Shown here: piece by piece, positions 7,022 through 32,572 of the stretch
How positions within the stretch are numbered: position 1 is the first letter of the stretch
How the letters are laid out: each line of letters starts with the position of its first letter
DNA from: an uncultured bacterium
GTDB lineage: Bacteria; Fidelibacterota; UBA2242
Direction: 5' to 3'
Assembly: GCA_964589175.1 (NCBI GenBank)
Contig: CAZPRY010000014.1
Coordinates: 6,779 to 70,778 of the forward strand
DNA: 64,000 nt
The notes under the pieces: model-generated
What the model was told of the DNA's origin: nothing
The model's input: the letters and a program-made list of their open reading frames with translations, nothing else
Database searches by the model: none
Program-made: the position numbers and the translations under genes

Positions 7022-7043
7022 TTCGTGAAAGATGGATGCAATC

Positions 7044-10000
7044 TTATTTCATGAAAAGCATCTTGCGCACCGCCGTAAATTCGGGCGCCGTCAATCTATA
7101 GAAGTACACACCGTTGGCGACGCGCTGCCCGTTACGGTCCGTGCCGTCCCAGATCACGTTATAGCGGCCGGCAGCGAAATGCCGGGCGAGAATCGTTCTC
7201 ACCCGGTTACCGCGCAGGTCGTAAATCTCGAGGCTCACCTGCCCGGCCTGTGCCAGGCTGAAGCCTATCTGCGTCAGCGGGTTGAATGGATTCGGGTAGT
7301 TCTGATCGAGGCTGAAAGCAAGTGGTATCGAATTTTCATTATCTACCGCAACGGCGACGTAACTCAGGACAAAAACTTCGAAGGCATCCGAGGCGACCAT
7401 CGCACCGCTGCTGTCGCGGGCGGCAATCGACCACCGATAGGGCAAAACCCGGCCGTATTCGAGGGGATAGCCCGGAAAATCCGCCAGCGTGATTTGTGTC
7501 TGGCTCTCGATTATATTCAGTTTCCTGGTTGTGTCGACAATGGCGGGATCATCGGCAAATAAAGCGAAATCATAGTAAACGGTCTCGCCATCCGGATCGC
7601 CGCCGGACCAGCGGAACAGGTAGCTTGCAGCGCCGCTCTCAAATACCAGCGTATCGCCCCTCACCGGTGAAAGCAAGGCCGGAACTTCGGGTGCATGATT
7701 GATGCGGATTCGAATCATCAACTCTCTGACAGCACTGGTTTGTTCGAATTCACCGTCGCCTGCGATCACCCGCCAGTACAGGATTACATCGGAATCATCC
7801 CCGTAGCGCGACAATAAATTAGCACCGCTGAAAACGAATTCGGAATCGGGATAGACGGTTGCGGAGAAAACCATACCCGTGAAGGCCTGGTCTTCCGCCA
7901 CCTGGAACTCATAATAAACGGGATCGCAATTCGCATCGAACGAAGCATTCCAGCGGAAAAGCCGCATATCTCCTTCCGACTTGATGACCCAATCCGCACT
8001 GTCGACGGGTTCGAGTAACTCGAATTCCTCCGGCGCGGACGGCGGAATCTCAAATTTTATCCGGTATGGTGTAATCGCCGAGGGTGTATAATGGGCGCCG
8101 TCGGTTGCCCAGACAACCGCATAAAGCGTCGCCGTGCCATTCGGACCAACCAGTTCGCAGGGCATTTGAAACGAAAACCCGGCGCTGTCGGTATTGGACT
8201 CCTGGGAAATCAGAATTCCATCGACCAGGCTGCTGTCCGAAGAGATGCGCAAAACATAGGAGATGTCATCGCCCTGCGGATCGACAGCGGCATTCCAGTC
8301 CACCGCTAAATCCAGGTTCAGCGATGTCAATGTATAGACATCGTCCGCAACGGGCAGCGTAATTTCCGCTTTTGAAGGGCTTTGGTTTTCTTCATGAAAC
8401 CAGGCCAGCGAGCGCTGCAGCAGTTGCGTTTTACTGACCATCATCTGCGAACCATCGAAGATATCCTCGAACACAAATCCCGCCACGATCAGGTGCGCAT
8501 CCGACTCGTGCCGGATCATCCCGTAGCCGTTGCTGCCGATCACCTGAAAGACGGGCACCGTGCGCAGGTCGGCATCCGGCAAGAGTACATCTTTCTGCGA
8601 TTCCAGGGTTGTAATCATCATCAGTTGATTTTGCCCAATCGGATCGTCCGTAATTCCCTTTAAATACTGGTTCGCAGACTTCGCCCAAAACGAGCTATGG
8701 AGTTTCTGCCGCAGAAAAACAGAATCGGCCAAAAGACTCCCAACATGGTTACCGCTCAGAAAGAGGTTTCCCGAATTTGTCAGAAGAGAGTCCAGGAGAT
8801 TTTTCTCAGACTGAAAAAATGGGGTCGTTCTTTCCTGATTCAGCCAGAGTACCGTAATTGGCGCCGGAAACGTGGATACCTGTTGCCAGGTGATGAACTG
8901 TCCCTCTTTGAAATTGTCCCAGAGATGGACGGTTGCACCGGCAGACTCGAAAAGCGGCGGGACCATGGCCCAGTCGTCCTCTCCTTCATCGCTGTCGATC
9001 AGCAAAACATCCGCGGGGCTCAGGCGCAGATCATAGACCAGGCCGTCTGACGAAATCGTAATATCCTCTGCACGTTCCTGCGGATAGGGCGGTCGGGGAT
9101 AGACAGCCAGTGAATACCTGCCCTCCGGTAAAGTGGTTTTATAATTCCCGGCGCTATCGGTCAGAACGACCTGCACCGGGATATTGCCGGGATTGGAGGC
9201 GCTGAAAAATTCCAGACGCGCACTGATCGGCATGGCGTTCATCTTGTCGGCGACCAGACCGACTACTTTCACGCCGGGCCTGCTCTGCAAACGGATATCC
9301 ATCGCTATCACTTCTGTTTCTTCAATTCCCCCGGGAGAATTAAAATGTACTTCCTGTACTTCCGAATGATAGAAAAAACAGTTGAATTCCAACTGTATAT
9401 CCTGCGTTAAACTAGTAAACGAAAAACTGCCGTCTGTGCGTACGAAAAGCGAATCCGTGGCGATGTAGCCGGGCCACTCATAGACGGAGCGATCCCCCGT
9501 GCTCACCAATTCCAGGGCCTGCATGCGCACCGCCGATCCGCTCTTGATGAGAATATAACTGCTGCCGAGCGGGGCGAGGTTGGCGGAATCCGCGATGGTC
9601 CCGCTGATTTGCCAGACGGGATAAATCTCGGAAATCCCGGCAACATCCTGCGGGTGAAGGCTGCGCTTAGCCGTATCGCCCGGAGCGCCATATCCGTACA
9701 TGGTCGCTTGGGGAACCAGTTCCCCGACTCCCGGGGGACTGCCATGCTCGCCGGCGTGTCCCAGTCCCAGGTGATGTCCGAATTCATGCGTCACGACACT
9801 CTGCAGATCCATCGTATCGGACGGACAATTATCCGGATTGGAACTGGGCGGGAAATCGCGGGCATTCCAGACCAGATCGGATTCAACCGCATGATAATCT
9901 TCACCTACGCCGTTTGTCCAGGTCATTGAAAAGGCAATCACATCCGTGTTGGGTTCGAAATTCTCGCTGCTGTCATTGGTGTCAAAATAGATCAGGTTCA

Positions 10001-10298
10001 CATTATCGCGGCTTGGCTTCTGCTTTGGGCTTCGTTCTCCCTCTTCAAATACCCAATACGAAGTAGGCACGTTGCTCCAGGTATCGGCAGCGGCCTGGAT
10101 CGCCGTTGTATAATCTTCACTCGTATCGACGTTTAGCTGATACTTAAATGGAAGGTATTGACGGCCGTCCGCGTATTGCAGATATCTCCGGTACGTTCCG
10201 GCAACGTTACTGAAAATCGAAAAAGCAAAGACCATAGTGCTTAGCATCAGCACCAGGCCGATTATTATTATCCCGGTTATGGGTTGGATCTTTTTCAT
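7044..10298 (-). CDS. T9SS-secreted zinc metalloprotease, metzincin/matrixin-like (HEFGHHLGLGH, Met-turn ATMYGY), with type-A CTD.
   Basis: Signal peptide MKKIQPITGIIIIGLVLMLSTMVFA. HExxHxxGxxH motif. C-terminal NYPNPFNP…LEIYDLRGNRV…GVYFYRL…KMLFMK. Confidence 0.8.
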   Translation of the reverse strand: MKKIQPITGIIIIGLVLMLSTMVFAFSIFSNVAGTYRRYLQYADGRQYLPFKYQLNVDTSEDYTTAIQAAADTWSNVPTSYWVFEEGERSPKQKPSRDNVNLIYFDTNDSSENFEPNTDVIAFSMTWTNGVGEDYHAVESDLVWNARDFPPSSNPDNCPSDTMDLQSVVTHEFGHHLGLGHAGEHGSPPGVGELVPQATMYGYGAPGDTAKRSLHPQDVAGISEIYPVWQISGTIADSANLAPLGSSYILIKSGSAVRMQALELVSTGDRSVYEWPGYIATDSLFVRTDGSFSFTSLTQDIQLEFNCFFYHSEVQEVHFNSPGGIEETEVIAMDIRLQSRPGVKVVGLVADKMNAMPISARLEFFSASNPGNIPVQVVLTDSAGNYKTTLPEGRYSLAVYPRPPYPQERAEDITISSDGLVYDLRLSPADVLLIDSDEGEDDWAMVPPLFESAGATVHLWDNFKEGQFITWQQVSTFPAPITVLWLNQERTTPFFQSEKNLLDSLLTNSGNLFLSGNHVGSLLADSVFLRQKLHSSFWAKSANQYLKGITDDPIGQNQLMMITTLESQKDVLLPDADLRTVPVFQVIGSNGYGMIRHESDAHLIVAGFVFEDIFDGSQMMVSKTQLLQRSLAWFHEENQSPSKAEITLPVADDVYTLTSLNLDLAVDWNAAVDPQGDDISYVLRISSDSSLVDGILISQESNTDSAGFSFQMPCELVGPNGTATLYAVVWATDGAHYTPSAITPYRIKFEIPPSAPEEFELLEPVDSADWVIKSEGDMRLFRWNASFDANCDPVYYEFQVAEDQAFTGMVFSATVYPDSEFVFSGANLLSRYGDDSDVILYWRVIAGDGEFEQTSAVRELMIRIRINHAPEVPALLSPVRGDTLVFESGAASYLFRWSGGDPDGETVYYDFALFADDPAIVDTTRKLNIIESQTQITLADFPGYPLEYGRVLPYRWSIAARDSSGAMVASDAFEVFVLSYVAVAVDNENSIPLAFSLDQNYPNPFNPLTQIGFSLAQAGQVSLEIYDLRGNRVRTILARHFAAGRYNVIWDGTDRNGQRVANGVYFYRLTAPEFTAVRKMLFMK

Positions 10299-10309
10299 AT
10301 TCGAAGCAC

Positions 10310-10852
10310 CTATTCGCTAATCGTACGGATACGGTTAATGAAGTCTTTGAAGAGCACCTGAGTGAGTTCAGGAGCCCGGCTGGATTTTTTCGCCAGGTCG
10401 ATCCCGAAGATATCTTCGGCCGGCATGATCGTGCGAATTTTTTTCTCGCCGCCCGCCTTATCCGTATAAATCGTAAACTTGCCCAGCTCCATCGATTCGA
10501 TCCGGTAGCGCCCCCGGAACCGGCGCACGAACAGAATGACTTCATCACCGGGCGCCAGCAATTCCACGCCGGGTACTTCCAGACCGGTATCCCCAACATG
10601 GCCGCCCAACTGCGAAATCGTAATTCGATTCTGGGTCCAGCTGCCTTTCAACACTTCATTGATCTCGACTTCCGCCTCGGTCCAGATGAACTCATGCTTC
10701 TCGTCCCAGTCCGCCCGGGTACTCTGTACGGAGCCGTAGATAACCAGATCGGTATTGCGTTGCAGTTTCTCCAGCGTTGTCCGCCGGAGCGTCAACGAAA
10801 AGAGCAGAAAGGGCAGGGATAAAAGCATAACCACAAACAATGTTTTCTTCAT
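10310..10852 (-). CDS. Small secreted hypothetical protein, co-oriented immediately upstream of the metzincin.
   Basis: 180-aa ORF with signal peptide MKKTLFVVMLLSLPFLLFSL. Only 11 bp from the metzincin start. Confidence 0.5.
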   Translation of the reverse strand: MKKTLFVVMLLSLPFLLFSLTLRRTTLEKLQRNTDLVIYGSVQSTRADWDEKHEFIWTEAEVEINEVLKGSWTQNRITISQLGGHVGDTGLEVPGVELLAPGDEVILFVRRFRGRYRIESMELGKFTIYTDKAGGEKKIRTIMPAEDIFGIDLAKKSSRAPELTQVLFKDFINRIRTISE

Positions 10853-10971
10853 AAATAACCTTACTTTTATTTCGCAGCACGATAGACGATCGACAAAGCG
10901 CGCAAAATCACCGGTAATCTAACCAATTTGGTTTAAGAAATAATCAATTATTTGCCCGAAAGAATATTGAA

Positions 10972-10999
10972 GAAAAAAAAGGGAGTCCCGCGGACTCCC
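10972..10999 (-). terminator. Rho-independent terminator after the 702-aa cargo gene.
   Basis: gggagtcc-gcg-ggactccc hairpin flanked by an A8 tract on plus, i.e. T8 on minus (T-tract on both sides). Confidence 0.75.
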
Positions 11000-11023
11000 T
11001 TTTTCATATAAAAAGCCTGATGC

Positions 11024-13132
11024 TTATTTGATAAAAAACATCTTGCGGATCGCATTGAAGTCATTGGCTTTCATCTCGTAAAAATAGATGCCGGCCGCGA
11101 CTTCCTGACCGTACATGTCGATCCCGTTCCACTCCACCGTATGGAGGCCGGCATTCTGCCTGGCGTTCACAAGATCGAGCACCTTGTTGCCCAGCAGGTT
11201 GTAGACCGAAATCGTCACATTGGCGGTCTTCGGAACCGAATACTGGATCTGCGTTCCGGGATTGAACGGATTCGGGTAGTTCTGTTGCAGCGAATACTCC
11301 GCCGCTACTGTGGGACCCTCCTGAATGTCGGTTTTGGTAATATCCAGCCAGGTCAGCGAGTTCTGCAGCAAGGTCTTGAATTTGCTGAAATCGGAGCACA
11401 ATTCGATCGGGAAAGCGTAGGTGATCGTGCGGAAATTCGAACCGGCTTTCCGAATCGCCATACCGTTGCTGGCGTTCTTTTTCTCGGTGAAAATCTGCAC
11501 AGCATCGGCATTGGCCTGAATATAATCACCCCAATTCGACCAGCTCATCAGGTCGTAATCGATCACGCCGTAGGTATCCGGCGCCGGGAAATTCTTCGTG
11601 ATAGCATCACCACGGACACCGTACATTTCGATATCGGCGCTGCCGCCGTTGTCACCATTACCGTCGTCGTCCGGATCGTTCGAATAGGTGCCGATGCCCA
11701 GGTAATCATAGGCAAAATCACCGGCGCTGAAAGAGCCCGTAGCCGGCATGCCCCAGGCAAAGAGATAATCCATGTCCACCAGCATCAGGTTGTTGCCGGC
11801 ATCCAGGAAGGCCTTCACATTATAAAAATCTTCGCTGGCATCGCTGCTGATCGGGAGCAACTCCGTGCCCCAGCCGAAATCGATGATGGTATGGAAGCCC
11901 CAGTGAATAACGGACAGATCGACGCCGTCATGCTCGGCCATATCCCAGAGAAAATAGCGGTAGCCCAATTCGTCCAGGGCCATCGTATAGAGTGAGTCAT
12001 TGCTGCGTCCGCTGTCATTGAGCAGTAGAAGAGCAGTGCGCGGGTCCGGTTCGGGGACCCGCAGAATATCATAGTCATCGGAGGTCTTGGACAGGCCGTT
12101 CATATCCACGGCTTTGATATAATAATTGAGCGTATCGCCCACCGGCAGATCGATCGTACCCGTGTAGAGATCGCCGGCGACCAGCGCCATCGAGACCGAA
12201 TCCCTATTGTCTTCGTCGCTATTCCACCAGTACTTAATCCAGGCATTGAACTGATCGCCGTCCATGTCGATGATCGTGGCCTGAATCGTGGTCTGCTGCT
12301 CGAAGGTATCCGACGGTTCGAAAACTTCTTCGACAACCGGCGGTACGGCGGCGTATTCGACCTCGATCTGCATCATGTGGAAAACAAACTGCCGTTCACC
12401 GTCGACATCCGCTCCCCAGTTGAACCAACCGGAATGGGCGCCCTGGCTATGCAGGGTTGAGAGACTGCGCGATTCCTCGTGATAATCGTTATCCTGTAAA
12501 ATTTTGGGGTTACCGGTGCCGTCCAGCGAATAGCCGACCCAGCAGTAGCGATCGTCATCGTCCAGATAGATGCCCTGACCCAAAACCTGGGTCAGATCCA
12601 GGATATTCCAGGTCGGCGTCCATTTACCGGAAGTAAACTGCTCGGTCGGGGTCTGGGCGGCGCAGGACAGCGGAATCCCGAAAGGAACTTTCATTTCGCA
12701 GTCATAATCGCCGGGATAGGTATACCAAAGCGAATCCCAGTTGACGGCGTTCCAGATATAGCAGGTTGCCGTTCCGGCCGTCTGGTTCTGCATGAAAAAT
12801 TTATTGATCGTTCCCGGCGCCAGCAGCGTGAAGCGATGGATACAGGTATCGTTGGCCGATTGGTAACCGCCCAATCCATCGTCATAATCGGCATAATTTC
12901 TGGGCACAGTGTAATAGTAGAGCGTATCAATGATCGTGCTCTTGCTGCCGTTCGGATTGGCTTTTACCGATAGGCTGTGGTAAATATCGCCGGTTTTAAT
13001 CAGGGCCTTATCTTTGGAGATATGCAGGACTTCTTCCTTTTCCCCGATTTTTCCCTCGCGCGCCATCAGTAAAGCGGTAGCGGAGAACAAAAACACGGAA
13101 AAAACCAAAAATACAACTAACAATTTCCTCAT
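11024..13132 (-). CDS. T9SS cargo protein, paralog of 22..3084 (type-A CTD).
   Basis: Signal peptide. Shared LLLLNDSG…VIHWGFHTII…GDFAYDYLGIG core. C-terminal NYPNPFNPGTQIQYS…VYNLLGNKV…GIYFYEM…KMFFIK. Confidence 0.75.
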   Translation of the reverse strand: MRKLLVVFLVFSVFLFSATALLMAREGKIGEKEEVLHISKDKALIKTGDIYHSLSVKANPNGSKSTIIDTLYYYTVPRNYADYDDGLGGYQSANDTCIHRFTLLAPGTINKFFMQNQTAGTATCYIWNAVNWDSLWYTYPGDYDCEMKVPFGIPLSCAAQTPTEQFTSGKWTPTWNILDLTQVLGQGIYLDDDDRYCWVGYSLDGTGNPKILQDNDYHEESRSLSTLHSQGAHSGWFNWGADVDGERQFVFHMMQIEVEYAAVPPVVEEVFEPSDTFEQQTTIQATIIDMDGDQFNAWIKYWWNSDEDNRDSVSMALVAGDLYTGTIDLPVGDTLNYYIKAVDMNGLSKTSDDYDILRVPEPDPRTALLLLNDSGRSNDSLYTMALDELGYRYFLWDMAEHDGVDLSVIHWGFHTIIDFGWGTELLPISSDASEDFYNVKAFLDAGNNLMLVDMDYLFAWGMPATGSFSAGDFAYDYLGIGTYSNDPDDDGNGDNGGSADIEMYGVRGDAITKNFPAPDTYGVIDYDLMSWSNWGDYIQANADAVQIFTEKKNASNGMAIRKAGSNFRTITYAFPIELCSDFSKFKTLLQNSLTWLDITKTDIQEGPTVAAEYSLQQNYPNPFNPGTQIQYSVPKTANVTISVYNLLGNKVLDLVNARQNAGLHTVEWNGIDMYGQEVAAGIYFYEMKANDFNAIRKMFFIK

Positions 13133-13185
13133 GATTTACTCCTCTTGTAGGTTATTTTACATTCAACTATTTATAATAATTATGC

Positions 13186-14247
13186 TCAATAAGCTATCTC
13201 AATGCCGATCCGCTGGATGGGCTGCAGGTATTTGTGCGACTCCCAGGCGTACTCGATCCAAAAATCCTTGCCGGTAAATTTGCCGAAATTGATACCACCG
13301 CCGAAAGTCAATCCTTTCATATTCCCGCCGAGTTCTTCGTCATCAGTATTGGGCTTCAACAGGGCAATCAGGTTGGCATGTCCCAGCGCCAGGTAGAAGA
13401 GACCGGGATAGCGCCATTCCAGAGCGCTCAGGATGGTCTCCTTTTGATCGACGGAGTTGGCGGCTTCGAAATTATAATCCAGGAAACTCGTTTTGCCGAG
13501 CGGGAATTGCATTTTAGCGGCGATATGAAAACTCATCGGCAGCGAGTATTCCTCGGATATCAATTCATACTTCACATCCTCCTCGGCGAAGGGATTCTCC
13601 GAATCGGTCATCAGGCCCTGCAGACCTTCCCCCGCATAGCGCATATCCGGGCCGAAATTGCGGATCGCGAAGCCGATTTTCAGGTTGGCGAACAAGCCGG
13701 TCTTGTACATCGCCCCGACATCGCAGGCCCAACTGGTGGCGCTGACTTTGGCCAGGTTCTGGTTCACCAGTTTGATACTCACGCCGCCGTCGAATTTGTT
13801 TGTCATCGCCCGTGCGAAGGTGACTCCGACGGCATAATCGTTGGCCGTAAAGTAAGCGCCCGTGCCCTCGTCTTCGTACTCTGTCGTCTCTTCGATATCG
13901 CCGCTCAACAGGCCGATCCCGTAAAATCCCAATGTCCCGAAACTAAGTGGAATAGCCAGGGCGATATTTTCATATTTCATGCCGGCGAAGTAGTTCGCAT
14001 GTGAAACCGCCACCGAACCGCTGGTGATGCTCCGGATACCAGCCGGATTCCAGAACATGGCCTGGGCGCTCCCATCGGAAGCCGTATAGGCGCCGGCCAG
14101 CGCGACCCCGCGTGTGCCGCCGAATATCTGGAGGAATTGCGCCCCGGCGCTGCCCTGTCCCGCGGAGGCCAGCTGCAGCCCGAAAAAACCAAGCAGAACT
14201 GTCGTTTGTAAAATCTTTTTCATATTCTCAACACTTCTATTTATCAC
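13186..14247 (-). CDS. PorV/PorQ-family outer-membrane protein (T9SS shuttle/channel family), copy 1.
   Basis: Signal peptide. N-terminal GAGAQFLQIFGGTRGVALAGAYTA…AMFWNPAGI signature typical of PorV/LptO-like FadL-fold proteins. 353 aa. C-terminal aromatic residue. Confidence 0.7.
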   Translation of the reverse strand: MINRSVENMKKILQTTVLLGFFGLQLASAGQGSAGAQFLQIFGGTRGVALAGAYTASDGSAQAMFWNPAGIRSITSGSVAVSHANYFAGMKYENIALAIPLSFGTLGFYGIGLLSGDIEETTEYEDEGTGAYFTANDYAVGVTFARAMTNKFDGGVSIKLVNQNLAKVSATSWACDVGAMYKTGLFANLKIGFAIRNFGPDMRYAGEGLQGLMTDSENPFAEEDVKYELISEEYSLPMSFHIAAKMQFPLGKTSFLDYNFEAANSVDQKETILSALEWRYPGLFYLALGHANLIALLKPNTDDEELGGNMKGLTFGGGINFGKFTGKDFWIEYAWESHKYLQPIQRIGIEIAY

Positions 14248-14283
14248 TTCAATTATCCGACATTCTATCCCCGTTTGCCAACC

Positions 14284-17200
14284 TCACGGTCCCAAAATCA
14301 CGGCGATTTTTCCAGTGTGCGTCAGGGTTTCGCCGTTGATTTTCGCCTCGACATAGTAGAGATACAGACCGCTGGCGACCTTCAGTCCTTCGTAATTGCG
14401 CAAATCCCAGGAGAGCGTGCCGTACTGATCGAGCACCTCGTTGGCCTCCACAATCCCGTTTTTGCGGAGATGCGCCACCATATTTCCGGCTACATTGAAA
14501 ATACGCACATGCACGGGATTGTCGATGGTTCCCAACGGCATATGCCGGAAATCGATATGCTGCGTGTAGCGGTCGGTATCCCAGATCGCCCGGACATAAT
14601 AGGGATTCGGGACAACCTTGATCTGATTCATGTCGACCTTTTCCACCGGGGTGTTCATATTGCTGGTGCCGAACCGAAAAATATCTTCGGTCGTAATCGG
14701 CCGGGAGGTGAAGATGTACAGGGTATCATCTTCCGACGGAATGTCCAGGTAATCCGCAGTCGCCAGGTTGGTATCAATCGGTACGAATACGACTTCAAAG
14801 GCAAAGGGATTGATGGCCTTCGCTTCACGCGTGGCCTCCGTCAGAATACGGGCGGTATTGATATTCAAACTGTCATAAGGCGCGCTCTGTTCGATGCGCC
14901 AATCGATTAGTCCGTCGATAATGAAGGCGCCGTTGGGATTGAACATGCGGCTTGTGACACCCAGGGTCCGGTTCCAGGCTTTCCACGGTACGCGCTGATT
15001 AGGTTTCGCGAAACTGGCGTAATCGACCATCGCCGTGGCGGCACCCGTATCCGGAAAAGTGATAAAATAATCGTACGGTTCGACCTGTCCCGGATTGATT
15101 TCGGTACGGAAGAGCGCCCCCTGATCGGAGGTCACGCCCCAGGCGACGGAATCGACCGAGAGCTGCGGCGAATCGACGCGGAACAGGAATCCGTGATCGA
15201 TCAGGGTCGAATCAGCGGCCAGTTCTTTAGCGGCATAGATACGCGGATTGTACTTGACCGTTCCGGTCAGCGTGTCCGGTCCCCAATCCATCACGCGCAA
15301 CTTCGAATACTGGTAATCGGCCAGAATCTTATTGGTCGATAAAAAAGTATTCTGATCCCGCTCCAGATTGATGACGCCTTTGCCGTAATGGATAACGCCC
15401 CGGACGGCGCCACCGTTGATCTGGCCCTGCAGATTGCCTAGGCTGTCATCCGTGACCGTCCCGGTTTCACCCTCAATCTGCAGGATTAGAGTACCCGGAT
15501 AGACATCCATCTCAGCAACCCGCAGCCGGATTGCGGAAGCATCGTTGCCGTTACCGAGTTCTTCGCCATAGATAGCCACAGGTTCCAGATCGCGATCCCA
15601 GAGGATACCATAATCCGCGCCCAGTTTGCTGCTGTTGGGATCTTCCTTGTAGAAGCGGATTTCGTAGGCATGCCCCTTAAGATTGCGATGATCCAGAATA
15701 CCGCGCGCAATTCTGCCGGTAGATTCACCTACATGCTCGACCCCGGTGAGTTCCGGTTCGCCGATCACTTCGAGCGGCTGATGCTGCGGTATCACGCTCT
15801 GAATATTCTGATAATAACTGCTCTCCAATGACGGGATGTTCAGATCGGGATAACCCTTGTCGTAAGAAGTCACCGCATAGTAATAAGTCATGCCGTCCGT
15901 CAATTCAGCGTCAACGTAGGTGTAGGCCAGATCCGTCTGGTTGCCGATGTCTTTCGTCAGATAGGTCTTTACCGTAAAGATATCACCGACGGCCGGTTTG
16001 AGCTTCTGCAGGGCTTTTTCCTCGTCTTCCACATCTACAAAGGGTTCGCCGCTATCCCAAATCCCGTTACCGTTCGAATCCGTAAACGGTTCGCCGCGGT
16101 CGCGGACACCGTTGCCTTCCCCGTCCTGATCCTTGTCCTCATACTGTCCGTTGGAAATCTGGATCAGCACGCCGTTGAAGTAGATATAGTATCCCGAACG
16201 ATAGATATCGTCCTGAGCCTTATTGGTACTGCGGTTTCCGTTGAAAGTTTTATACAACGTAAAGCCGTAGCCGTAGGTTATCGCAAAAAAGTTAAACGGC
16301 ACCAACTGCCGGTTGGTAACATCATAGATCACGACCCGCGTTGTGTCATAGTAATTGATGTTATCCGGTGTATAAGAAGTCTTAACCAGCTCAATAGTAT
16401 ATTCTGCCTCTTTGAATCTTTCGTAAAAGAGTTCCAGGAGTTTCTCATCCGTCTGGGTTCCAGACTCGATCGCCTGCAGGTCGCCCTCCGGCAGCAGGCC
16501 GGCCAGGCGGACGGTAGCATTGGAACTGCCGCGCGTATATTCAACCGTGGCGCTATTGTTCGTGCTGTCGCCCAGGACATCGTAATCGGCCAGGAGTTCC
16601 CAGCTGTCCTGCAGGCCGGACGTACTTTTATAGACCCGGAAGCCTTCGAAATCCTGTTGCCCGGTGTAAGGATCGATATCATCGAGCGGATCGCTCGTCC
16701 AGGAAAGATAGGCCCGGTGGTGTCCGGGGATCACGGTTAGTCCCGGCGACGAGGGCGGTTCGGGACCGATAAAACCGGAATTGTACTTCTGGACGGCCGC
16801 GCGCGTATTGCTCTTCAATTCAGCCAGGGAAGCGCCGCCGACAATGGCCAAGGTCACACTGATCTCTTCACCCGGATTCAAGCGTTTCACCGGTCCGGAG
16901 CTGGTCAACTGGCGCACATCCTGCGGATTTTCGTAAACCTCGAAACTGTCCACCAGGGCCAGTTCGGCGTATTTCAGGTGATCGGTGGCATCGTCGTCGA
17001 CATCACCGGGAAAGCCTTCGCTGACACCCAGATCGGAGCGAATCCAGGTCTGAAAACCGGTCAGCCCGATCTGCTTCAGTTCGCCGTCGATCGTGTCTTT
17101 GGGGGTTTCCACAAAGATCGATCCTATATAACCGGCCGAGGTCTGCCAGCCGGTTTCCATAAGATCGAAATCGTAGGAGTAGCCCAGGTTCAACTGCTTG

Positions 17201-18264: not shown

Positions 18265-18286
18265 CCGTAATATTCCTGTTCTTTAA

Positions 18287-25144: not shown

Positions 25145-25174
25145 AAAAAAAAGCGGCAGTGAAACCACTGCCGC
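25145..25174 (-). terminator. Rho-independent terminator after PorV-like copy 2.
   Basis: gcggcagtg-gtttc-actgccgc hairpin followed by T8 on the minus strand. Confidence 0.75.
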
Positions 25175-25206
25175 TTTCAGGATGCTTTATGCTATCCAGT
25201 CAAGAA

Positions 25207-26244
25207 CTAGAAGGCGAAGCTAACCGAGAAATACTGGTTGGCATCAAAAATGTCCATCGGCCGATTGGCATAATCGAACATGATTTTGTTGCCGCCCATA
25301 TTCAGATTCAAACCGAACCCGAAAGTGAGACCATACTGTGCTTTTTCGTAGCCACTCTCGTAGTCCTCAGGATAGAGCGTCATCATGTAGCCGCCTCTGA
25401 GGAAGAGCATATCGTTCAACGAATACTCCGCACCGGTCGAGATAGCATCGAGCATGAACGTATTGTTGGAATAGGCGCCGGCCAGACTGAGTTTGTGCAT
25501 AGTGCCAAAATTCATCGTGTAACCGAGACCCATGTTCATGCTGGCCGGCAGTTCTTCTTCGGCCAGATCCAGTTTGGTCTTACGGGATGTCGCAGTCGGA
25601 CCGGCCCATGGTACCGAACTATCAAATTCGATACCGGTTCCGTCCCACTGCAGTTTGCTGCCGATATTTCTCATCGTTACGCCGAAAGCAATACCGAACG
25701 GCGAAACATACTGCAGACCGAAATCAAAGGCAACGGCGGAAGCGCTCATATTGCCAACCTTCTCGGATATCATCTTGGCATTCGTGCCAAAACTGATACG
25801 ATCCGTGAAACGATTGGAATAGGTTGCCGTGACCGTCAGATAATCCGGGCTCAGCATCTCGCCGGTTCCTTCCGGCATATCAATCGTGGTGACTTCGATC
25901 TCGCCGATATCCATAACCTGGAAAGCGATACCGACTGCACCCGACCGGCCGACGCGTGCGCCGGCAGCCAGGTACGATACTTTCATATCCGCAAAATACT
26001 GCATGTAGTTGAAGGTTGCGGAAGCGACATTCATCTTGGCCAGACCCGCTGGATTCCAATAAATACCTTCTGCACCTCCCACATTGGCGATATTTGCTCC
26101 TCCCAAGGCCACATTACGCGCCCCCATAGGGATAAACAATTCGGGAGCAGCGCTTGTGCCGACCTTAGGAGCGCTCGCAAAAACGCTCTGCGAACCAATG
26201 AGGAGCAGTATTAAAAGCCCAATCAAAATATATCTTCTACTCAT
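25207..26244 (-). CDS. PorV/PorQ-family outer-membrane protein, copy 2.
   Basis: Signal peptide (MSRRYILIGLLILLLIGSQSVFA). GARNVALGGANIANVGGAEGIYWNPAGL signature. Ends SVSFAF. Confidence 0.7.
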   Translation of the reverse strand: MSRRYILIGLLILLLIGSQSVFASAPKVGTSAAPELFIPMGARNVALGGANIANVGGAEGIYWNPAGLAKMNVASATFNYMQYFADMKVSYLAAGARVGRSGAVGIAFQVMDIGEIEVTTIDMPEGTGEMLSPDYLTVTATYSNRFTDRISFGTNAKMISEKVGNMSASAVAFDFGLQYVSPFGIAFGVTMRNIGSKLQWDGTGIEFDSSVPWAGPTATSRKTKLDLAEEELPASMNMGLGYTMNFGTMHKLSLAGAYSNNTFMLDAISTGAEYSLNDMLFLRGGYMMTLYPEDYESGYEKAQYGLTFGFGLNLNMGGNKIMFDYANRPMDIFDANQYFSVSFAF

Positions 26245-26288
26245 ATTACATCTCCCATTTTTAAGTCCGTAATTCATTTTCATACCCA

Positions 26289-29200
26289 TTAATAGGTATC
26301 CAATCGTTCGTTCGGGGCAAAGACGGCAATCTTACCAACCTTCTCACCGACATCCGGAACTTCAATATGGAAAATGTAGATGCCGCTAGCAACCGGAATC
26401 TCATACTCGTTTTCCAGGTCCCATTTCAGTAGGGTGTAGGTATCGTCTTTTTCCAACTTACGGATTGGGTTACCAGCCAGGTCGAAGATTCTGATTGTAC
26501 ATTTCGGCGGTACGTTCGTGAATTGGACCCACCGCTCGAAGATGTTGGCTTCACCGCTATGATATCCGTAGTACGGGTTCGGAACGACACGGATATTTTC
26601 CATATCGGCTTTCAGGTCCTCATTCGTACTTGTGACCGCCGCTGGAGCCGTAAACGTGAAGACATCATTCGTGGTATTCGGCTTATAGGTGTTGAGTCTC
26701 ATCCATTCACCGGCATGCGGAGGTCCGTAAAAATAGCCGTCGGCATCCAGATCACCGGCCGCAGCGTACCCGTCAAGGTCGATATACATGTTGATCATGA
26801 AACGGTTGATTGCCGGATATACGACACCATAAGGGCCGTATCCAGGAGCAACGGTGCCGTCATTGGTGGAGATGTAGGTAGCGACATCGGCCGGTTTATA
26901 CTCCGCATTGTCATAGATATAGAACATATCGAAAGCCGGGCCATATATACCGTCCGGGTTTCTATTCCAGATTCCATCTCCGGCGGCATCCAGCACGCAG
27001 ACCGTAATCCGCATCCGGGTACCGTCCGGATCGATACGCCAGAAGGTAGCCGGTACGAAAGCGGGTTTGCCATTCGAATCAACCAGTACGAGATCGGTGT
27101 AGTAGTCCCAAACCAGTGTACTATCCGTATCAGTAAAGATGATCTCGTAGTCTTTGGGAGTCATCAAACCGAAGCGGTCCATACGGGCATAGTCGGTTCC
27201 GGCGCTTTCCGAAATAACGAATACCGGCCAATGCTGCGAACGTCCGTAGTTGTTCAGACTGCCCATCAGGCGGGTATCATATACCGCACCGGTGGCCGGA
27301 TCGATTTCAACGATCGATTTGATGCCGGGCAGCGGACCTGCTACCTTGACCAACAGACCATCGACAACGGTGTAGGCATCATCGTTTTCCTGGTTGACCT
27401 GATCGGCAAGTACGACCGTATTGGTCGTCATATCCCACAGATCCCAGATGATATTGCCTTCGCCGTCATCCTTGAACTTGACGCCGTAGTCGTGTCCGGT
27501 AACTTCGGCAGGATCCACCACAATGGCGGTGACACCACCGTCACCGGCGGGAATACCGGCGTTCACCGGGACATAACCGACTTCCAGAGTATCGCCCTCG
27601 GAAGAGTTGTAACGTACACCCGGATGCTGCTGGGGCGTCACTTTTACTTTCGTGATCGGGCTGGGCAGGGTCTGCGGTCTGGCAAACTTACAATAGGAGT
27701 AAGCCTGAACGCCAAAGTAGTATTCTTTGCCGTTCGCCAGCGGATCGCCGACATTGCCGACCTTGGAGTTTTTATTGGTGCGCAATATAGCAAAACGCGG
27801 ACCGGTGTAAGCCACCGCATCGGCCGGATCGGCAACCCCGTAACGGGCGTATTCAACCGGATCACTACCGGATCCATCCGTAAACTGCCATACGACGTAC
27901 TCGGAGAAGTTGAAGGTACCGTCGGTAACGTCTACATAGTCATAACCGACGACGATCTTCTGACCGACGAGACCGTTGGCTACCAGGTCTTCAACGTCAT
28001 AGAGGCTGATGCCGTCCGGCATATACTCTGAACGCTGGTCCCAGGTCAGGATGACATGTCCGTCGAGCTCGCTGGACTTTACGACCGGTTGAGCCGGCGC
28101 CGGCGGAAGCACGAAGTTAATGTCATACGCCAGCTGGGCGATTTCATCAACAGCCTTCAAAACAGTCACACTGTTGAGGTTGTTGGAACCTTTGGCCAGA
28201 ATGATACCGCAGACGATTTCCTGCACACCGGTTTCACCGAAATCCGGCAGATTATTGCCGTTTTCGTCGTCCCACATCGGCATGGTGAAAGGTCCGGTCG
28301 TCATCAGGAAACGACGGTCATCCGGGTTCTGATCCAGCCAGCCCGTATCGCTCTCCGGATCGCCGGGGAACATAAACGTGGTCGCCGGGTAGGATTGATC
28401 GATGCCGTTACCTCCATCATTGGTGATGAAGGTACCATCGCGCCAGATACCGCGGAAGAAGTTCCAGACGTCGCCGCCGCTCTGCGGGTTACCCTGCGGG
28501 GAATCATTGTTATTATAGTACACAAAAGAGGTCATTTTGAGCATCGTGAAATCATCCAGAACCGTGCCGTCCGGCAGCGAAACCGTCGAGCCGGCTTCGG
28601 GGACGATCGGTCCCTGGAAAAAGTCGATACCCAAGGCCGGCGGCGCCGAACCGTAGTTCTGATCGGCATCCGTCGAGTTGTAGCACATACCCAGGCCGAG
28701 AAGACTATCGCAACCAACGAAGTCATCATTGGCGTCTCCCAGATCCGGATCGGACCAGATCGAGAAGTAGGTATCCGCCCAATCTTTATCGCTCTTGTTG
28801 GCAATCTGCCACTTGATAAAGATCATATCGCCGATAGCATCGGCGCGGTTGAAGGCCCAGGCCATCTGGCGAACTTCGGCGCCGAGTTTCGCGGTGGCGT
28901 ACTCGGTATGATCGGCCAGATCGTTATAGACACACCAGGCCGTCTGGTCGCCGATCATCATCGGATTGCCGTCGGCATCCACCGGGGCGCCCTGATCGGT
29001 CGGCCAATTGCTCCAGTCGCCTGTTCCATCGGAACGCAGCTCGTACCAGCGATATTTCGGATCGTTGCGGTTGTCAGCCACGCCCGGGCTCAGGATCATA
29101 CCCGGCATGAATTCCGTGGCGGAGTGCTGAATACCGGCAACGCGCGGTACACCGTCCACCATGGCCCCGATCCACTGACCGGCGCCAAAGATAGGGCTCA

Positions 29201-29423
29201 GGCCCGATCCCTGCGGCCATTCGAGACCCCAGTCACCCAGGATATTGTCGTAGAACCAGGTCCCGTTATTGCGCATAACCCCGTTCATTCGGTTGGCATT
29301 GATCCAGATATCACTGGTAACGCCGGTTTTCCCGAGATAGCGGGGTTGATCAATAGCTTCGGCACCGAATACCAGCGTCGAAACCATCAATAAAAGCATA
29401 GAGATTATTAGAATCTTCTTCAT
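26289..29423 (-). CDS. Large T9SS cargo protein with variant CTD, paralog of 21763..24849. Start placed at the internal Met, MKKILIISMLLL.
   Basis: Same conserved blocks as above. CTD VVPNPYYGYH…RIFDLAGNPI…GIYIFHI…GKIAVFAPNERLDTY. Confidence 0.7.
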   Translation of the reverse strand: MKKILIISMLLLMVSTLVFGAEAIDQPRYLGKTGVTSDIWINANRMNGVMRNNGTWFYDNILGDWGLEWPQGSGLSPIFGAGQWIGAMVDGVPRVAGIQHSATEFMPGMILSPGVADNRNDPKYRWYELRSDGTGDWSNWPTDQGAPVDADGNPMMIGDQTAWCVYNDLADHTEYATAKLGAEVRQMAWAFNRADAIGDMIFIKWQIANKSDKDWADTYFSIWSDPDLGDANDDFVGCDSLLGLGMCYNSTDADQNYGSAPPALGIDFFQGPIVPEAGSTVSLPDGTVLDDFTMLKMTSFVYYNNNDSPQGNPQSGGDVWNFFRGIWRDGTFITNDGGNGIDQSYPATTFMFPGDPESDTGWLDQNPDDRRFLMTTGPFTMPMWDDENGNNLPDFGETGVQEIVCGIILAKGSNNLNSVTVLKAVDEIAQLAYDINFVLPPAPAQPVVKSSELDGHVILTWDQRSEYMPDGISLYDVEDLVANGLVGQKIVVGYDYVDVTDGTFNFSEYVVWQFTDGSGSDPVEYARYGVADPADAVAYTGPRFAILRTNKNSKVGNVGDPLANGKEYYFGVQAYSYCKFARPQTLPSPITKVKVTPQQHPGVRYNSSEGDTLEVGYVPVNAGIPAGDGGVTAIVVDPAEVTGHDYGVKFKDDGEGNIIWDLWDMTTNTVVLADQVNQENDDAYTVVDGLLVKVAGPLPGIKSIVEIDPATGAVYDTRLMGSLNNYGRSQHWPVFVISESAGTDYARMDRFGLMTPKDYEIIFTDTDSTLVWDYYTDLVLVDSNGKPAFVPATFWRIDPDGTRMRITVCVLDAAGDGIWNRNPDGIYGPAFDMFYIYDNAEYKPADVATYISTNDGTVAPGYGPYGVVYPAINRFMINMYIDLDGYAAAGDLDADGYFYGPPHAGEWMRLNTYKPNTTNDVFTFTAPAAVTSTNEDLKADMENIRVVPNPYYGYHSGEANIFERWVQFTNVPPKCTIRIFDLAGNPIRKLEKDDTYTLLKWDLENEYEIPVASGIYIFHIEVPDVGEKVGKIAVFAPNERLDTY

Positions 29424-29479
29424 AAATCTTCCTCCAATATTACACAACATTAAATCCCCTGATTATATCCCACACTCTA

Positions 29480-32400
29480 TTAGATTTCGAGCATCAGACC
29501 CAAACGGATCTGACGGGGAACACCGTAGTTGTTGTAATCCCATTCCCGCATCTTATAGAGGGATTTGCCGGTATCATCCAGGCTGTTCCAGTAAGTTTTT
29601 CCCGGCGCAGTTCCGAGATAACCGGTATCATTGGGTAATCCTGTTGTGATATAGACATCCTTAACATTGGCGGTATTCAGGAGATTGATCACCCACGCAT
29701 AGGCCGTGAGTTTTGCCTTGCCAATATAGAAGCCTTTATCGATTTTCAGATCGATTCTGAAGACCCAAGGACTAACTTCCGAATTAACGGCTGATAGCGG
29801 TTGTTCGGAAAGGGCATCGTTATCATAACGACCGTTGAACGGGAAGTTATTCACGATCTTGGCTCGGGTAAACGGGTTGCCGGAATTGAAGGCAAACTGC
29901 ATGTTAGCCCCGAAGTTTTTCAGAGCAGCCGGAACGGAGGCTTCCTGGCCCAGACGGTAATCCAGGTTCAATGTGCCGGTATGTCTCTGCTCGAAGGCCA
30001 GCGGCTGGGCATATTTCGGGAAATGTCCTCTTGCACCGCCCTGCCAGGCAATATCAAAGTTACCACCCGAAGCAGAACCGGTGCCATTGGCGAACTGCAT
30101 TTCGTAGTTCATCGTCGCGGACAGATTCTTCCAACGTCTGAGCGTAAAGATCACATCCAGACCTTTGATCGTACCGTAATCACCGTTCTGATAGAAAGCG
30201 ATGTTGGTGACATCGGTCGTTTCATTGATCAACTGGACCAGGTCTTCGGTCTCTTTGTAGAAGGCTGTCAACTGCAATGCGGCCATTTCGCCCAATCTCT
30301 GCTTGAAACCAATTTCATAGGAAATGGTTTTCGGCGGTCTGAGATTCGGGTTGTCCAGGGATGTAAAATAGCCGCCGGATTTTACGTATCTATCCAGGTA
30401 GAACGGGCTTGAGTAAAGGTCCGTAAGCCGCGGAGCCTGGTAGAAGATACCGTACTGGGCGTGAAAAACGGTCATATCGGTGACCGGGAAACTCATGCCC
30501 AGGCGGGGGCTGATGTAGTAATACGTTTCGGAATCAACGACATCTTCTCGCGTAAAAGCTTCGTCGCCGCCGAACATACCGGTCCCGGCCACATAGGTGC
30601 CGTTGCCATTGTAATTGACCTTACCATCCGCATCAATATACTGGGCCGCGATCTCCTTGAACATCCAACCATTCGGATTGATATGGTCATAACGCAGACC
30701 GAGATTCAGGATCAGGTCTCTGAACTCGACTTTATCCTGCAGGTAACCGCTCATGATAATCGGGTTGTAGGGAGCCTGTTTTTTCCAGGCGTCGTTGGTC
30801 GGACTCAGGTTGGCATCGAACTCAGTGTCGAAATAATCACCGTCATCGACTTCGTTACCGTCGACATCATACCCGTAGAAACGGATATCCGCGGCGCGGT
30901 ACTTTTCGATCTCGGTCGAATAATCGGGATCGGCCAATTTGGTCGGAGTATAAATTCGGATGGACCGGAGCGTATGATATTTATACTCAAAACCGGCCTT
31001 GAATGTGTGATATTTACCCTGCTGATGGGTAAGGTCAAAATCGATTCCCCAATACGTGGTGCGTTGCTTATAGTAAGAATCGTACTGGCTGTAGGGCTGG
31101 AAGAAATCCGGTCCCAAACGCCCCGTATAAGCTTCGCCGTAGTACTGAGCTTCATCCGGCCACGGATTGTAGGTCGGATCGCCGTATTTCTCAAGATCAT
31201 CCTTGAAGGTCGGATCGTAGCACTTTACTTCCGTATCGAAGTGCATAAACTTCAGATCGTAGAAAGTGTGCCCCGACAGGGTGTGGGTCAAGGTCGTATT
31301 GATCGACTGGGTGTCGGTGAAATACAGCGGCCGATGCTCCGTATCAAAGAAGCGAATCGGCTGAATTGCCGCAGCCGTACCCAAAAAGTCCGCACTGAAC
31401 TGCCGGTTGGTCTGCGAGATACTGCTCTTCAGTTCCATCTTCTTGCCCAGCTGCAATTTGATCTTTCCGGTGTAGGACCAATCCGAGCTGGCGTTTTTCG
31501 GCAGGCGGGCATTGAACTTGTAGTTCTTGATCGAGGTCGTATCGGAAGTAACATCCTCCACCGTTGTGCCGTCTGCGGCAAAGGTGGTGTCATAAGCTAC
31601 CTGATACTCATCGAACAGACTCGGATCATAAGAGTTGTGCGTGTACGTATAATCATCGAGACGCCACGGATTATAAGCCCAGCCGTAGGACGGGGTAATA
31701 TCCGCACGGTACGTACGAACACCACTGAAGAAGAAAGTGTGCTTCTTCTTCGGGATAATCGGACCGCTCAGTGTCATCGTATACTCGTTAAAGCCGTACG
31801 AATACGCGCCTAACGCTTCTTTGTCGGCACTGAGAAATTCATCGGTCACCGCTTCCACGGAAGCAGAATAGCGATCAGTACCGGCGTTGGTTGTAATGGC
31901 GATAATACCGGACATTGCCTCACCGTATTCCGCATTAAAACCACCCGTCTGAACACTCATTTCTTCGATCGCGCTGGCCGGCAGATGAATCCTGACCGCG
32001 TAATTGTAGGGGTCATTTACAAAGACACCATCAATATACACGGCGGTTTCGGACGAACGACCGCCACGGACATTCATCGCGCCGCTGTTTTCTTCTTTTA
32101 CAACACCGGCGACCGTACCGACGATATCCTGAATCGACCGGATCGGAAGGTGTTGAATTTCCTCGGCGGACTTGATGATGTTCGTATTGGTTTCATCCTT
32201 ACGAATCATCGGCCTTTGCGCAGTAACCATAACTTCTTCGAATTCCAGAGCCGTTACTTCCAGCTCGAAATTCATCTCAGTTGTCAGGTCCAGCGATACT
32301 CTAACGCCTTGAACTACTACATCCTTGTAACCGATGTAGGATGCACGAACCGTGTATCCGCCAACGGGCACATTGAGGATTGAATAGTAGCCTTCCGCGT

Positions 32401-32572
32401 CAGAAGCAGCTCCCAAAAACAGGGATTCATCATCGATGATGATATTTACACCTGTTAATGGCTCGCCAGTAGCCTTGTCAACAACTGTTCCTGCGATCTT
32501 ACCGACCGTTGCTGCGAACATAGCAAATGGTAGCAAAATCACTAAAAAGCAAATCGAGACACGACGTACCAT
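29480..32572 (-). CDS. TonB-dependent receptor with CarbopepD_reg-like N-domain, paralog of 18287..21535.
   Basis: TonB-box EEVMVTA. Plug TGGFNAEYGEAMSGIIAITT. 1030 aa. Confidence 0.8.
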   Translation of the reverse strand: MVRRVSICFLVILLPFAMFAATVGKIAGTVVDKATGEPLTGVNIIIDDESLFLGAASDAEGYYSILNVPVGGYTVRASYIGYKDVVVQGVRVSLDLTTEMNFELEVTALEFEEVMVTAQRPMIRKDETNTNIIKSAEEIQHLPIRSIQDIVGTVAGVVKEENSGAMNVRGGRSSETAVYIDGVFVNDPYNYAVRIHLPASAIEEMSVQTGGFNAEYGEAMSGIIAITTNAGTDRYSASVEAVTDEFLSADKEALGAYSYGFNEYTMTLSGPIIPKKKHTFFFSGVRTYRADITPSYGWAYNPWRLDDYTYTHNSYDPSLFDEYQVAYDTTFAADGTTVEDVTSDTTSIKNYKFNARLPKNASSDWSYTGKIKLQLGKKMELKSSISQTNRQFSADFLGTAAAIQPIRFFDTEHRPLYFTDTQSINTTLTHTLSGHTFYDLKFMHFDTEVKCYDPTFKDDLEKYGDPTYNPWPDEAQYYGEAYTGRLGPDFFQPYSQYDSYYKQRTTYWGIDFDLTHQQGKYHTFKAGFEYKYHTLRSIRIYTPTKLADPDYSTEIEKYRAADIRFYGYDVDGNEVDDGDYFDTEFDANLSPTNDAWKKQAPYNPIIMSGYLQDKVEFRDLILNLGLRYDHINPNGWMFKEIAAQYIDADGKVNYNGNGTYVAGTGMFGGDEAFTREDVVDSETYYYISPRLGMSFPVTDMTVFHAQYGIFYQAPRLTDLYSSPFYLDRYVKSGGYFTSLDNPNLRPPKTISYEIGFKQRLGEMAALQLTAFYKETEDLVQLINETTDVTNIAFYQNGDYGTIKGLDVIFTLRRWKNLSATMNYEMQFANGTGSASGGNFDIAWQGGARGHFPKYAQPLAFEQRHTGTLNLDYRLGQEASVPAALKNFGANMQFAFNSGNPFTRAKIVNNFPFNGRYDNDALSEQPLSAVNSEVSPWVFRIDLKIDKGFYIGKAKLTAYAWVINLLNTANVKDVYITTGLPNDTGYLGTAPGKTYWNSLDDTGKSLYKMREWDYNNYGVPRQIRLGLMLEI

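Follow-up and report, generated by a model that had tools for sequence, protein, structure and literature searches.

Two conserved gene modules combining a TonB-dependent receptor, a large all-beta protein and a PorV/PorQ-family barrel: a putative SusD-free uptake system in an uncultured Fidelibacterota bacterium

A 64-kb stretch of DNA from an uncultured bacterium of the Fidelibacterota (UBA2242 lineage; GenBank assembly GCA_964589175.1, contig CAZPRY010000014.1, positions 6,779 to 70,778 of the forward strand), referred to here as the window and numbered from its first letter, carries an array of genes on its minus strand (7044-32572) in which one gene order is found twice. A gene for a TonB-dependent receptor is followed by one for a large protein of ~1,050-1,330 amino acids (aa) and then by one for an outer-membrane barrel of the PorV/PorQ family. 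Receptor, large protein and barrel form a compact unit that recurs across phyla and whose parts diverge together. These modules are widespread and unannotated. We lean, with modest conviction, towards reading each of them as a SusD-free outer-membrane unit for the capture and import of nutrients, in which a protein exported by type IX secretion (T9SS) would be anchored on its own cognate barrel. The large proteins are named cargoA, cargoB and cargoC, the receptors TBDR1 and TBDR2 and the barrels PorVQ1 and PorVQ2, and their genes are arranged as follows:

29480-32572, minus strand: TBDR1, a TonB-dependent transporter of 1,030 aa (module 1)
26289-29423, minus strand: cargoA, a predicted secreted all-beta protein of 1,044 aa (module 1)
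25207-26244, minus strand: PorVQ1, a PorV/PorQ-family outer-membrane barrel of 345 aa (module 1)
21763-24849, minus strand: cargoB, a cargoA paralog of 1,028 aa trailing module 1
18287-21535, minus strand: TBDR2, a TonB-dependent transporter of 1,082 aa (module 2)
14284-18264, minus strand: cargoC, a distant paralog of cargoA/B of 1,326 aa (module 2)
13186-14247, minus strand: PorVQ2, a PorV/PorQ-family barrel whose open reading frame (ORF) starts at GTG 14247 (module 2)

All of the ORFs listed in a preliminary description of the array were recovered on the minus strand at or near the coordinates given there, including the repeated order of receptor, cargo and barrel and the third large-protein paralog (cargoB) between the two modules. 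The intergenic gaps within the modules are 22-56 bp, against the 22-54 bp reported initially. For PorVQ2, an ATG at position 14223 (MKKIL...) is a likelier start than the GTG at 14247.

At least 901 homologs of cargoA were found, all of them labelled 'hypothetical', and the named relatives closest to the large proteins belong to metagenome-assembled genomes (MAGs) of Marinimicrobia. A scan with one genome per species returned at least 583 relatives, from which 80 loci were taken for neighbourhood analysis; these carry the labels Neomarinimicrobiota, KSB1, Calditrichota, Ignavibacteriota/Melioribacter, Bacteroidota MAGs, Kryptonium, Eisenbacteria, Zixibacteria, GN15 and Fidelibacterota. ORFs were called in the loci and then searched with the window proteins, with counts limited to loci with enough flanking sequence. 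A receptor gene immediately precedes the cargo gene in 53 of 65 loci, a PorV/PorQ barrel gene immediately follows it in 60 of 69, and the triplet is intact in 51 of the 62 assessable loci. These span at least eight phylum-level lineages, and the median gaps are 21 and 15 bp. Several of the apparent misses are frameshifts or ORF-calling artefacts. The preliminary description had made its proposal depend on synteny of the triplet in related genomes, and such synteny is what these loci display. The same trio was encountered in independent look-ups in KSB1, a metagenome contig (L002) and WOR-3, and look-ups started from barrel homologs retrieved it in 3/3 cases. The three components also co-diverge (Mantel r 0.79-0.84, p 0.001). 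In the N-terminal domain (N-domain) of the large protein, divergence follows that of the receptor (r 0.81), also when the barrel is controlled for (partial r 0.63); with control for the receptor, no relation to the barrel is left (partial r 0.04).

The receptor carries every part of a TonB-dependent importer. Both TBDR1 and TBDR2 combine CarboxypepD_reg and Plug domains with a TonB_dep_Rec barrel (Pfam), TBDR1 has a signal peptide and a barrel of the 22-strand type, and TonB-box-like stretches occur in each ('EEVMVTA', or 'VMVTA', in TBDR1; 'VEVVA' in the other receptor). The two share about 30-37% identity, and orthologs of TBDR2 are present in loci L089 (1027 bits), L090 (599 bits) and L091 (650 bits). 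Their description as SusC-sized holds for length; it does not extend to family membership, as the NCBIfam model of the SusC/RagA family is matched neither by TBDR1 (E<=0.001) nor by TBDR2 (E<=0.01). A receptor search against the PDB gave no barrel homolog at E<=0.001, and no SusC or RagA structure was matched. The genes directly downstream of the receptors have no SusD match in Pfam and code instead for predicted all-beta proteins. Riboswitch control of the receptors was also considered and rejected, an Rfam search of the window having returned one tRNA only. In a separate observation, a gene immediately upstream of a type 1 module in a Marinimicrobia MAG (L094, 1-800, plus strand) has a faint SusD_RagB Pfam match and lies in the vicinity of a GH97 gene, an M28 peptidase gene and a second receptor gene; SusD-like genes may not be wholly absent from the Marinimicrobia lineage.

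The barrels belong with PorV and PorQ, as had been proposed, and not with FadL. PorVQ1 (172.6 bits) and PorVQ2 (141.5 bits) both exceed the curated cut-off of 90 bits of the NCBIfam PorV/PorQ family model NF033709, which is matched by 65/65 module barrels. PorVQ1 also reaches 37.4 bits with Pfam PorV (cut-off 27), its homologs bear the NCBI label 'PorV/PorQ family protein', and its sole PDB sequence match is Flavobacterium johnsoniae PorV (6h3i_F). The equivalog models are stricter, with cut-offs of 250 bits for PorV (NF033710) and 220 bits for PorQ (NF033711), and PorVQ1 (PorQ 104 bits, PorV 68 bits) and PorVQ2 (PorQ 84 bits, PorV 39 bits) fall short of both; both also fall under the cut-off of the PorV2 ortholog model. 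Because they score under both equivalog cut-offs, the window barrels appear to be PorV/PorQ family members that are orthologs of neither PorV nor PorQ, and PorQ is the best equivalog for each. Orthologs of PorVQ2 are present in L089, L090 and L091. Other barrel families were rejected as identities. The FadL/Toluene_X family (PF03349, gathering score 29.7 bits) is reached by PorVQ1 with 17.8 bits and not matched by PorVQ2, and no FadL structure is among the PDB matches of PorVQ1 at E<=10. PorP/SprF (TIGR03519) gave weak matches in 6/65 barrels (best E 6e-7), with the PorV/PorQ model scoring far better for all 65, and a BamG-like role was set aside on weak matches in 9/65 barrels as against 65/65.

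CargoA and cargoB are 53% identical over their full length, and cargoC shares the N-domain and the C-terminal domain (CTD) with them. CargoA is laid out as a Sec signal peptide, an N-terminal beta-supersandwich of ~410 aa, FN3-like domains, a hypervariable middle region (residues 641-940) and a PorZ-like CTD. Signal peptides were read by eye in cargoA (MKKILIISMLLLMVSTLVFGAEA) and cargoB (MKIIFLLFLFPCFPVFG), and cargoC has a hydrophobic N-terminus. Beyond weak CTD matches, no Pfam family or NCBIfam model matches the large proteins. Their N-domains share an invariant Asp cluster, DPDxGDxxDDxxGxD, common to cargoA/B and cargoC, which resembles a Ca2+ loop; Asp, Asn, Arg and Tyr are represented among the invariant residues of the domain, and His, Ser, Cys and Glu are not. 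When 1.84 billion cluster representatives (clusters at 50% identity) were searched with a three-sequence profile of the N-domain, 7,728 matched at E<=1e-3 and 2,132 of these at E<=1e-30.

That the large proteins are T9SS cargo, as initially proposed, is supported by homology of their CTDs, which had to be sought by profile-profile comparison. The standard models PF18962 and TIGR04183 match none of the three window CTDs at E<=0.01, and at the same threshold they match one (PF18962) and 14 (TIGR04183) of 45 family members. When the CTD profile of the cargo family (last ~105 residues) was aligned by hhalign with the four canonical type A CTDs of the window, homology was detected with 97.6% probability (E 3e-12). 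The CTD part of the PorZ model is matched by 41/45 family members and the PorU CTD by 21/45; the four canonical CTD proteins of the window match TIGR04183 and PorU and never PorZ. Only the CTDs of PorU and PorZ were matched when the cargo profile was compared with the PDB, both marginally, and residues 966-1034 of the AlphaFold2 model of cargoA form six beta-strands, consistent with a small beta-sandwich. The cargo CTD would accordingly be classed, on these profile matches, as a genuine, divergent sorting domain of type A-like character, probably closest to the retained CTD of PorZ. The CTD is the most conserved region of the cargo, mean identities across 54 type 1 triplets being 47% for the CTD, 42% for the N-domain and 24% for residues 641-940. 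A typical T9SS sorting domain ends at its last strand. At the C-terminus of cargoA (26289-26320, minus strand) a conserved subfamily tail, PNERLDTY, extends past this strand; cargoB and cargoC have none.

Structure prediction of the N-domain, suggested in the preliminary description as a route to a ligand-binding fold, gave a confident model and little else. The full-length AlphaFold2 model of cargoA is all-beta and multi-domain (pLDDT 85.5), and the N-domain modelled alone reached pLDDT 94.7 and pTM 0.93. A fold search with the full-length model found PorZ and generic Ig-domain proteins, via the beta-rich and CTD parts only, at template modelling (TM) scores <=0.18. The N-domain has weak neighbours (Foldseek TM <=0.39) among the non-catalytic N-terminal sandwich domains of glycoside hydrolase (GH) families GH116, GH94, GH63 and GH92 and among amine oxidases. 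The fold matches of both are uninformative on function.

Several known systems resemble the modules in part. As in the SusC/SusD (RagA/RagB) systems, a TonB-dependent transporter of ~1,000 aa with an N-terminal CarboxypepD_reg domain is encoded next to a surface-exposed partner, varied secreted enzymes and local regulators accompany the pair, and many paralogous loci exist. The modules differ from these systems in that their receptors lack a SusC/RagA match, in that the partner is an all-beta protein of ~1,050-1,330 aa with a T9SS CTD where Sus loci have an alpha-helical SusD lipoprotein, and in their third, obligatory gene for a PorV/PorQ-family barrel. Pairing of such a barrel with a surface protein is known from PorQ-PorZ and PorV-PorU, in which the CTD is retained as an anchor; the cargo CTDs score best against that of PorZ, as the window barrels do against PorQ. 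The barrels of the modules nevertheless lie under both ortholog cut-offs, and in its N-terminal parts the cargo has no relationship to PorZ or PorU. The modules are moreover multi-copy (two in the window, at least two in L040) and tied to a TonB receptor, and are therefore not part of the secretion machine itself. SprB-SprF of Flavobacterium johnsoniae likewise consists of a T9SS substrate with a cognate barrel gene directly downstream, although SprF/PorP is another barrel family, the CTD of the cargo is type A-like rather than type B, and a TonB receptor belongs to the module. In BtuB-BtuG, TbpA-TbpB and HmuR-HmuY, a receptor works with a surface capture protein encoded by a neighbouring gene; there the partner is lipid-anchored via lipoprotein pathways, whereas anchoring on a barrel after T9SS export would apply here.

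A precedent lies in the alginate locus of Rhodothermus marinus, where a published gene map (Fig. 2) places a tonB receptor gene, hypA (T9SS type A sorting domain), hypB (PorV/PorQ family) and hypC beside T9SS-tagged alginate lyases, with no comment by the authors (PMC9530828). Compared by gene order and annotation alone, this locus has the same gene order and is likewise surrounded by T9SS-secreted degradative enzymes; a hypothetical protein of ~465 aa after the trio recalls the gene for a ~460-aa GWxTD-domain protein found behind many type 1 modules. The hypA product is shorter (726 aa). In the open full-text literature, subscription-only papers being beyond reach, the triplet is not described as a system, and this uninterpreted map is its sole trace. 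The claim of an undescribed locus type stands as regards description, with the qualification that the order has been drawn before. A literature match to 'PorV2' was dismissed as a superscript artefact.

We infer import function, surface location and T9SS dependence for the modules. The large protein would be exported across the outer membrane via the T9SS, and its sorting domain would remain uncleaved and bound to the cognate PorQ-like barrel, which would thereby hold the protein on the outside of the cell with no need of a lipid tail. The conserved N-terminal beta-supersandwich would sit on or beside the receptor, the hypervariable middle region would bind substrate, and the receptor, energised by TonB/ExbBD, would import the captured material. 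PorU is held by PorV in the T9SS attachment complex. The CTD of PorZ is retained and bound to PorQ, and cognate PorV-like barrels may shield CTDs from cleavage (PMC10202324). A SusD-independent unit of receptor, surface protein and barrel thus survives from the preliminary description as the best reading; for the barrel, a permanent PorQ-like anchor is more likely than a dedicated 'shuttle'.

In the shuttle version, the barrel would act in the manner of PorV, ferrying the large protein from the T9SS translocon, after which the CTD would be cleaved and the cargo, attached to lipopolysaccharide (LPS) or released, would work together with the receptor as a binding protein in free or LPS-bound form. 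PorV itself so acts on type A substrates, the barrels match both the PorV equivalog model and the PorV structure in the PDB, and the cargo CTD has cleavable type A CTDs among its homologs. This alternative is nonetheless unlikely, if not negligibly so: a general PorV would suffice for a type A CTD, one cognate barrel per cargo argues for a lasting and specific pairing, the strong conservation of the CTD would be unexpected of a discarded signal, and the resemblances run to the retained PorZ CTD on the side of the cargoA family and to PorQ on that of the window barrels. It is less likely again, although partly compatible with the favoured reading, that the large protein has hydrolase or lyase activity, as an enzyme with a fold of a new family, and that the receptor imports its products. 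Invariant Asp, Asn, Arg and Tyr residues in the N-domain, weak fold matches to domains of glycoside hydrolases and phosphorylases, and family members without a receptor beside secreted proteases could be so explained. The fold matches are, however, to non-catalytic sandwich domains and of low TM, His, Ser, Cys and Glu are absent from the invariant set, the Asp cluster is Ca2+-loop-like, and one and the same conserved domain occurs in loci whose enzymes are unrelated (proteases in some, alginate lyases elsewhere), which suits a generic structural or partner role better than a single catalytic activity.

That the module is no importer at all is improbable. The TonB-dependent barrel might then serve export or surface assembly, as Oar does for PopC in Myxococcus, or the trio might build an adhesin or surface-layer structure. 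A TonB-dependent transporter needed for protein secretion has been reported (PMC6434023), and the Oar-like barrel PF25183 is recorded in some orthologous receptors (L001, L093, L095); it is, however, matched by neither TBDR1 nor TBDR2 at E<=0.01, the cargo has an export signal of its own in its T9SS CTD, and the modules accompany catabolic enzymes and regulators, as uptake loci do. Mere adjacency of three abundant types of outer-membrane gene might be expected in genomes rich in TonB receptors and T9SS substrates, the window alone holding seven CTD proteins (four of them canonical) and three receptors. Conservation of order, strand and short gaps across the assessed loci and lineages, the consistent reciprocal look-ups and the co-divergence of the components effectively refute this explanation, and chance adjacency is excluded for practical purposes.

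Capture and import by a barrel-anchored protein has its own difficulties. The contacts among the three proteins are putative; with no informative structural relative of the N-domain found by Foldseek, its binding role is a guess, and the Asp, Arg and Tyr residues invariant in it might have a catalytic role. The likeness of the cargo CTD to that of PorZ comes from weak scores (E 1e-5 to 3e-9), far under the model cut-off. Species phylogeny and unequal sequence lengths confound the co-divergence statistics, which are only suggestive. Family members also occur alone or in arrays without a receptor (L004, L036, L075, L092), and because of these the large protein can evidently work without an adjacent receptor. 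A substrate is suggested for module 2 alone. Finally, T9SS core genes were not seen in the 64-kb window and are located outside it; the four canonical CTD proteins imply a T9SS in the organism.

The two modules had been taken for tandem duplicates. Identity between them is low (receptor 30%, cargo 25%, barrel 24-27%) and each has its own syntenic orthologs in other phyla, for which reasons a recent local tandem duplication is rejected; by sequence comparison, modules 1 and 2 are ancient paralogs representing separately conserved types. For module 1, close orthologs exist, and the nearest neighbours of the three components are largely shared (L008, L005 and L006). Behind type 1 modules there is often a gene for a ~460-aa GWxTD-domain protein or a ~750-aa CTD protein; LytS/LytTR-type two-component genes are frequent neighbours, and a glutamate dehydrogenase gene is an occasional one. 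CargoB does lie next to the second receptor, as first noted, yet it belongs to the cargoA subfamily and fits a recurrent trailing paralog rather than a part of module 2, as the layout of receptor, cargo, barrel and trailing cargo paralog is found in L002, L010, L027, L028 and L037. On a 6.3-Mb contig (L093, 8001-10175, plus strand), a 724-aa protein of the N-domain family with a weak dockerin match is encoded directly upstream of a receptor-cargo-barrel trio, an arrangement that mirrors the position of cargoB upstream of module 2.

Module 2 continues downstream of its barrel. The remaining genes of the array and its terminators are:

25149-25178, minus strand: strong intrinsic terminator closing module 1 (13-bp stem with 7 GC pairs, then a T-run)
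11024-13132, minus strand: p702, a protein of 702 aa, unannotated in its N-terminal part and ending in a canonical T9SS type A CTD (module 2, fourth gene)
10972-10999, minus strand: intrinsic terminator after p702 (GGGAGTCC-GCG-GGACTCCC, then T9), read directly from the sequence
10310-10852, minus strand: p180, a predicted secreted protein of 180 aa with a signal peptide and no family (fifth gene of module 2)
7044-10298, minus strand: M10-type metzincin protease of 1,084 aa with a canonical T9SS CTD (sixth gene of module 2)
7001-7024, minus strand: strong intrinsic terminator closing the array (10-bp stem with 7 GC pairs, then a T-run)

All three terminators of the preliminary description were found, the first and last at shifted coordinates; that at 10972-10999 is absent from the output of the terminator scan, yet plain in the sequence. 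The cargoC family comprises 110 matches and reaches Fermentibacteria and WOR-3. On a 3.8-Mb contig (L090), all six module 2 genes are present in the same order, namely receptor, cargo, barrel, p702-like, p180-like and M10 protease. An ENA metagenome contig (L089) encodes clpP-clpX, a receptor, a cargoC-like protein (47-48% identical), a PorVQ2-like barrel and a p702-like protein, while a WOR-3 locus (L091) contains exbB-exbD-exbD-tonB, a receptor, a cargo, an NHL-repeat protein, a barrel, an InhA-like protease and an S8 protease. The exbB-exbD-exbD-tonB set lies directly upstream of the module in both L002 and L091. p702 is matched by PF18962 and TIGR04183, and L089 (309 bits) and L090 (111 bits) each carry a homolog in the corresponding place; p180 has one at the same position in L090 (E 2e-15), as does the M10 protease (266 bits), which combines Peptidase_M10, FlgD_ig and Por_Secre_tail domains and has an intact zinc motif, HEFGHHLGLGH. 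Module 2 thus extends downstream as a conserved six-gene array ending in the M10 protease. An M4 protease is encoded near family members in L092. Module 2 is linked to secreted proteolysis, and peptides are therefore its likely substrate. A 1,020-aa CTD protein at the edge of the window (22-3084, minus strand) and p702 both match the fourth-gene homologs of L089 and L090 over their unannotated N-terminal regions, and the two may represent another unnamed secreted family tied to the module.

The enzymes found beside the modules vary, from the M10 protease in the window and L090 to other proteases and, in Rhodothermus, alginate lyases, because of which the module behaves like a generic uptake core paired with varied degradative enzymes, as SusC/SusD does. 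A more far-reaching proposal, put forward tentatively and with the balance somewhat against it, is that these modules constitute a third architecture of TonB-dependent capture beside the SusD type and the TbpB/Slam type, in which a T9SS protein is docked permanently, via an uncleaved CTD, on its own PorQ-like barrel with its N-domain capping the receptor. Such a 'T9SS-anchored utilisome' would serve as the standard core for uptake in those lineages of the FCB (Fibrobacteres-Chlorobi-Bacteroidetes) superphylum that bear the module, namely Marinimicrobia, Ignavibacteriota, Calditrichota, KSB1, Zixibacteria, Eisenbacteria, WOR-3 and possibly Rhodothermus, and PorV/PorQ paralogs would, if this is true, gain a role outside secretion. 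Oceans, sediments and bioreactors hold large populations of Marinimicrobia, Ignavibacteriota, Calditrichota, KSB1 and their relatives, whose substrate uptake is, to our knowledge, largely unannotated. The prediction of utilisation loci and much thinking on 'selfish' polymer uptake rest on SusC/SusD pairs, so that loci of the present kind are overlooked. Recognition of the N-domain family would turn thousands of 'hypothetical' outer-membrane proteins into annotated ones and mark the loci that encode them as uptake systems, and would make testable both the role of many PorV/PorQ paralogs and whether cognate barrels shield CTDs from cleavage. The cultured hosts Rhodothermus marinus, with its alginate locus, and Melioribacter offer a direct route to experiments.

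Upstream of the array lie clpP, a trigger-factor gene, a tRNA-Leu gene, a gene for another T9SS-CTD protein and secA. The T9SS-CTD protein, encoded beyond the trigger-factor and clpP genes (34759-36726, minus strand), is 655 aa long and has weak Cohesin and SusE-like domains. The third receptor-like protein of the window is shorter (55950-58184, plus strand; 744 aa, CarboxypepD_reg and Plug), and the start of a gene for a DUF4249 protein (58130-59155, plus strand) overlaps its end, which makes for a receptor-plus-accessory pair of another kind. The 429-aa protein at 3508-4797 (minus strand) is an unusual fusion, in which a small alarmone synthetase domain of RelA/SpoT type (residues 71-177) is joined to a C-terminal DNA-binding domain, HTH_36. 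In a 494-aa ORF at 41820-43304 (minus strand), an SRP54 N-domain and GTPase domain of FtsY type come after a CDP-alcohol phosphatidyltransferase domain (residues 20-171); the ORF is either a true fusion or two genes joined by the ORF caller. Genes for proteins of the 'sporulation' families Spore_YtfJ and DUF2953 are neighbours at 48785-49156 and 49158-49793 (both minus strand), an odd pair here as the closest relatives of the window proteins are those of Marinimicrobia, in which sporulation is not expected.

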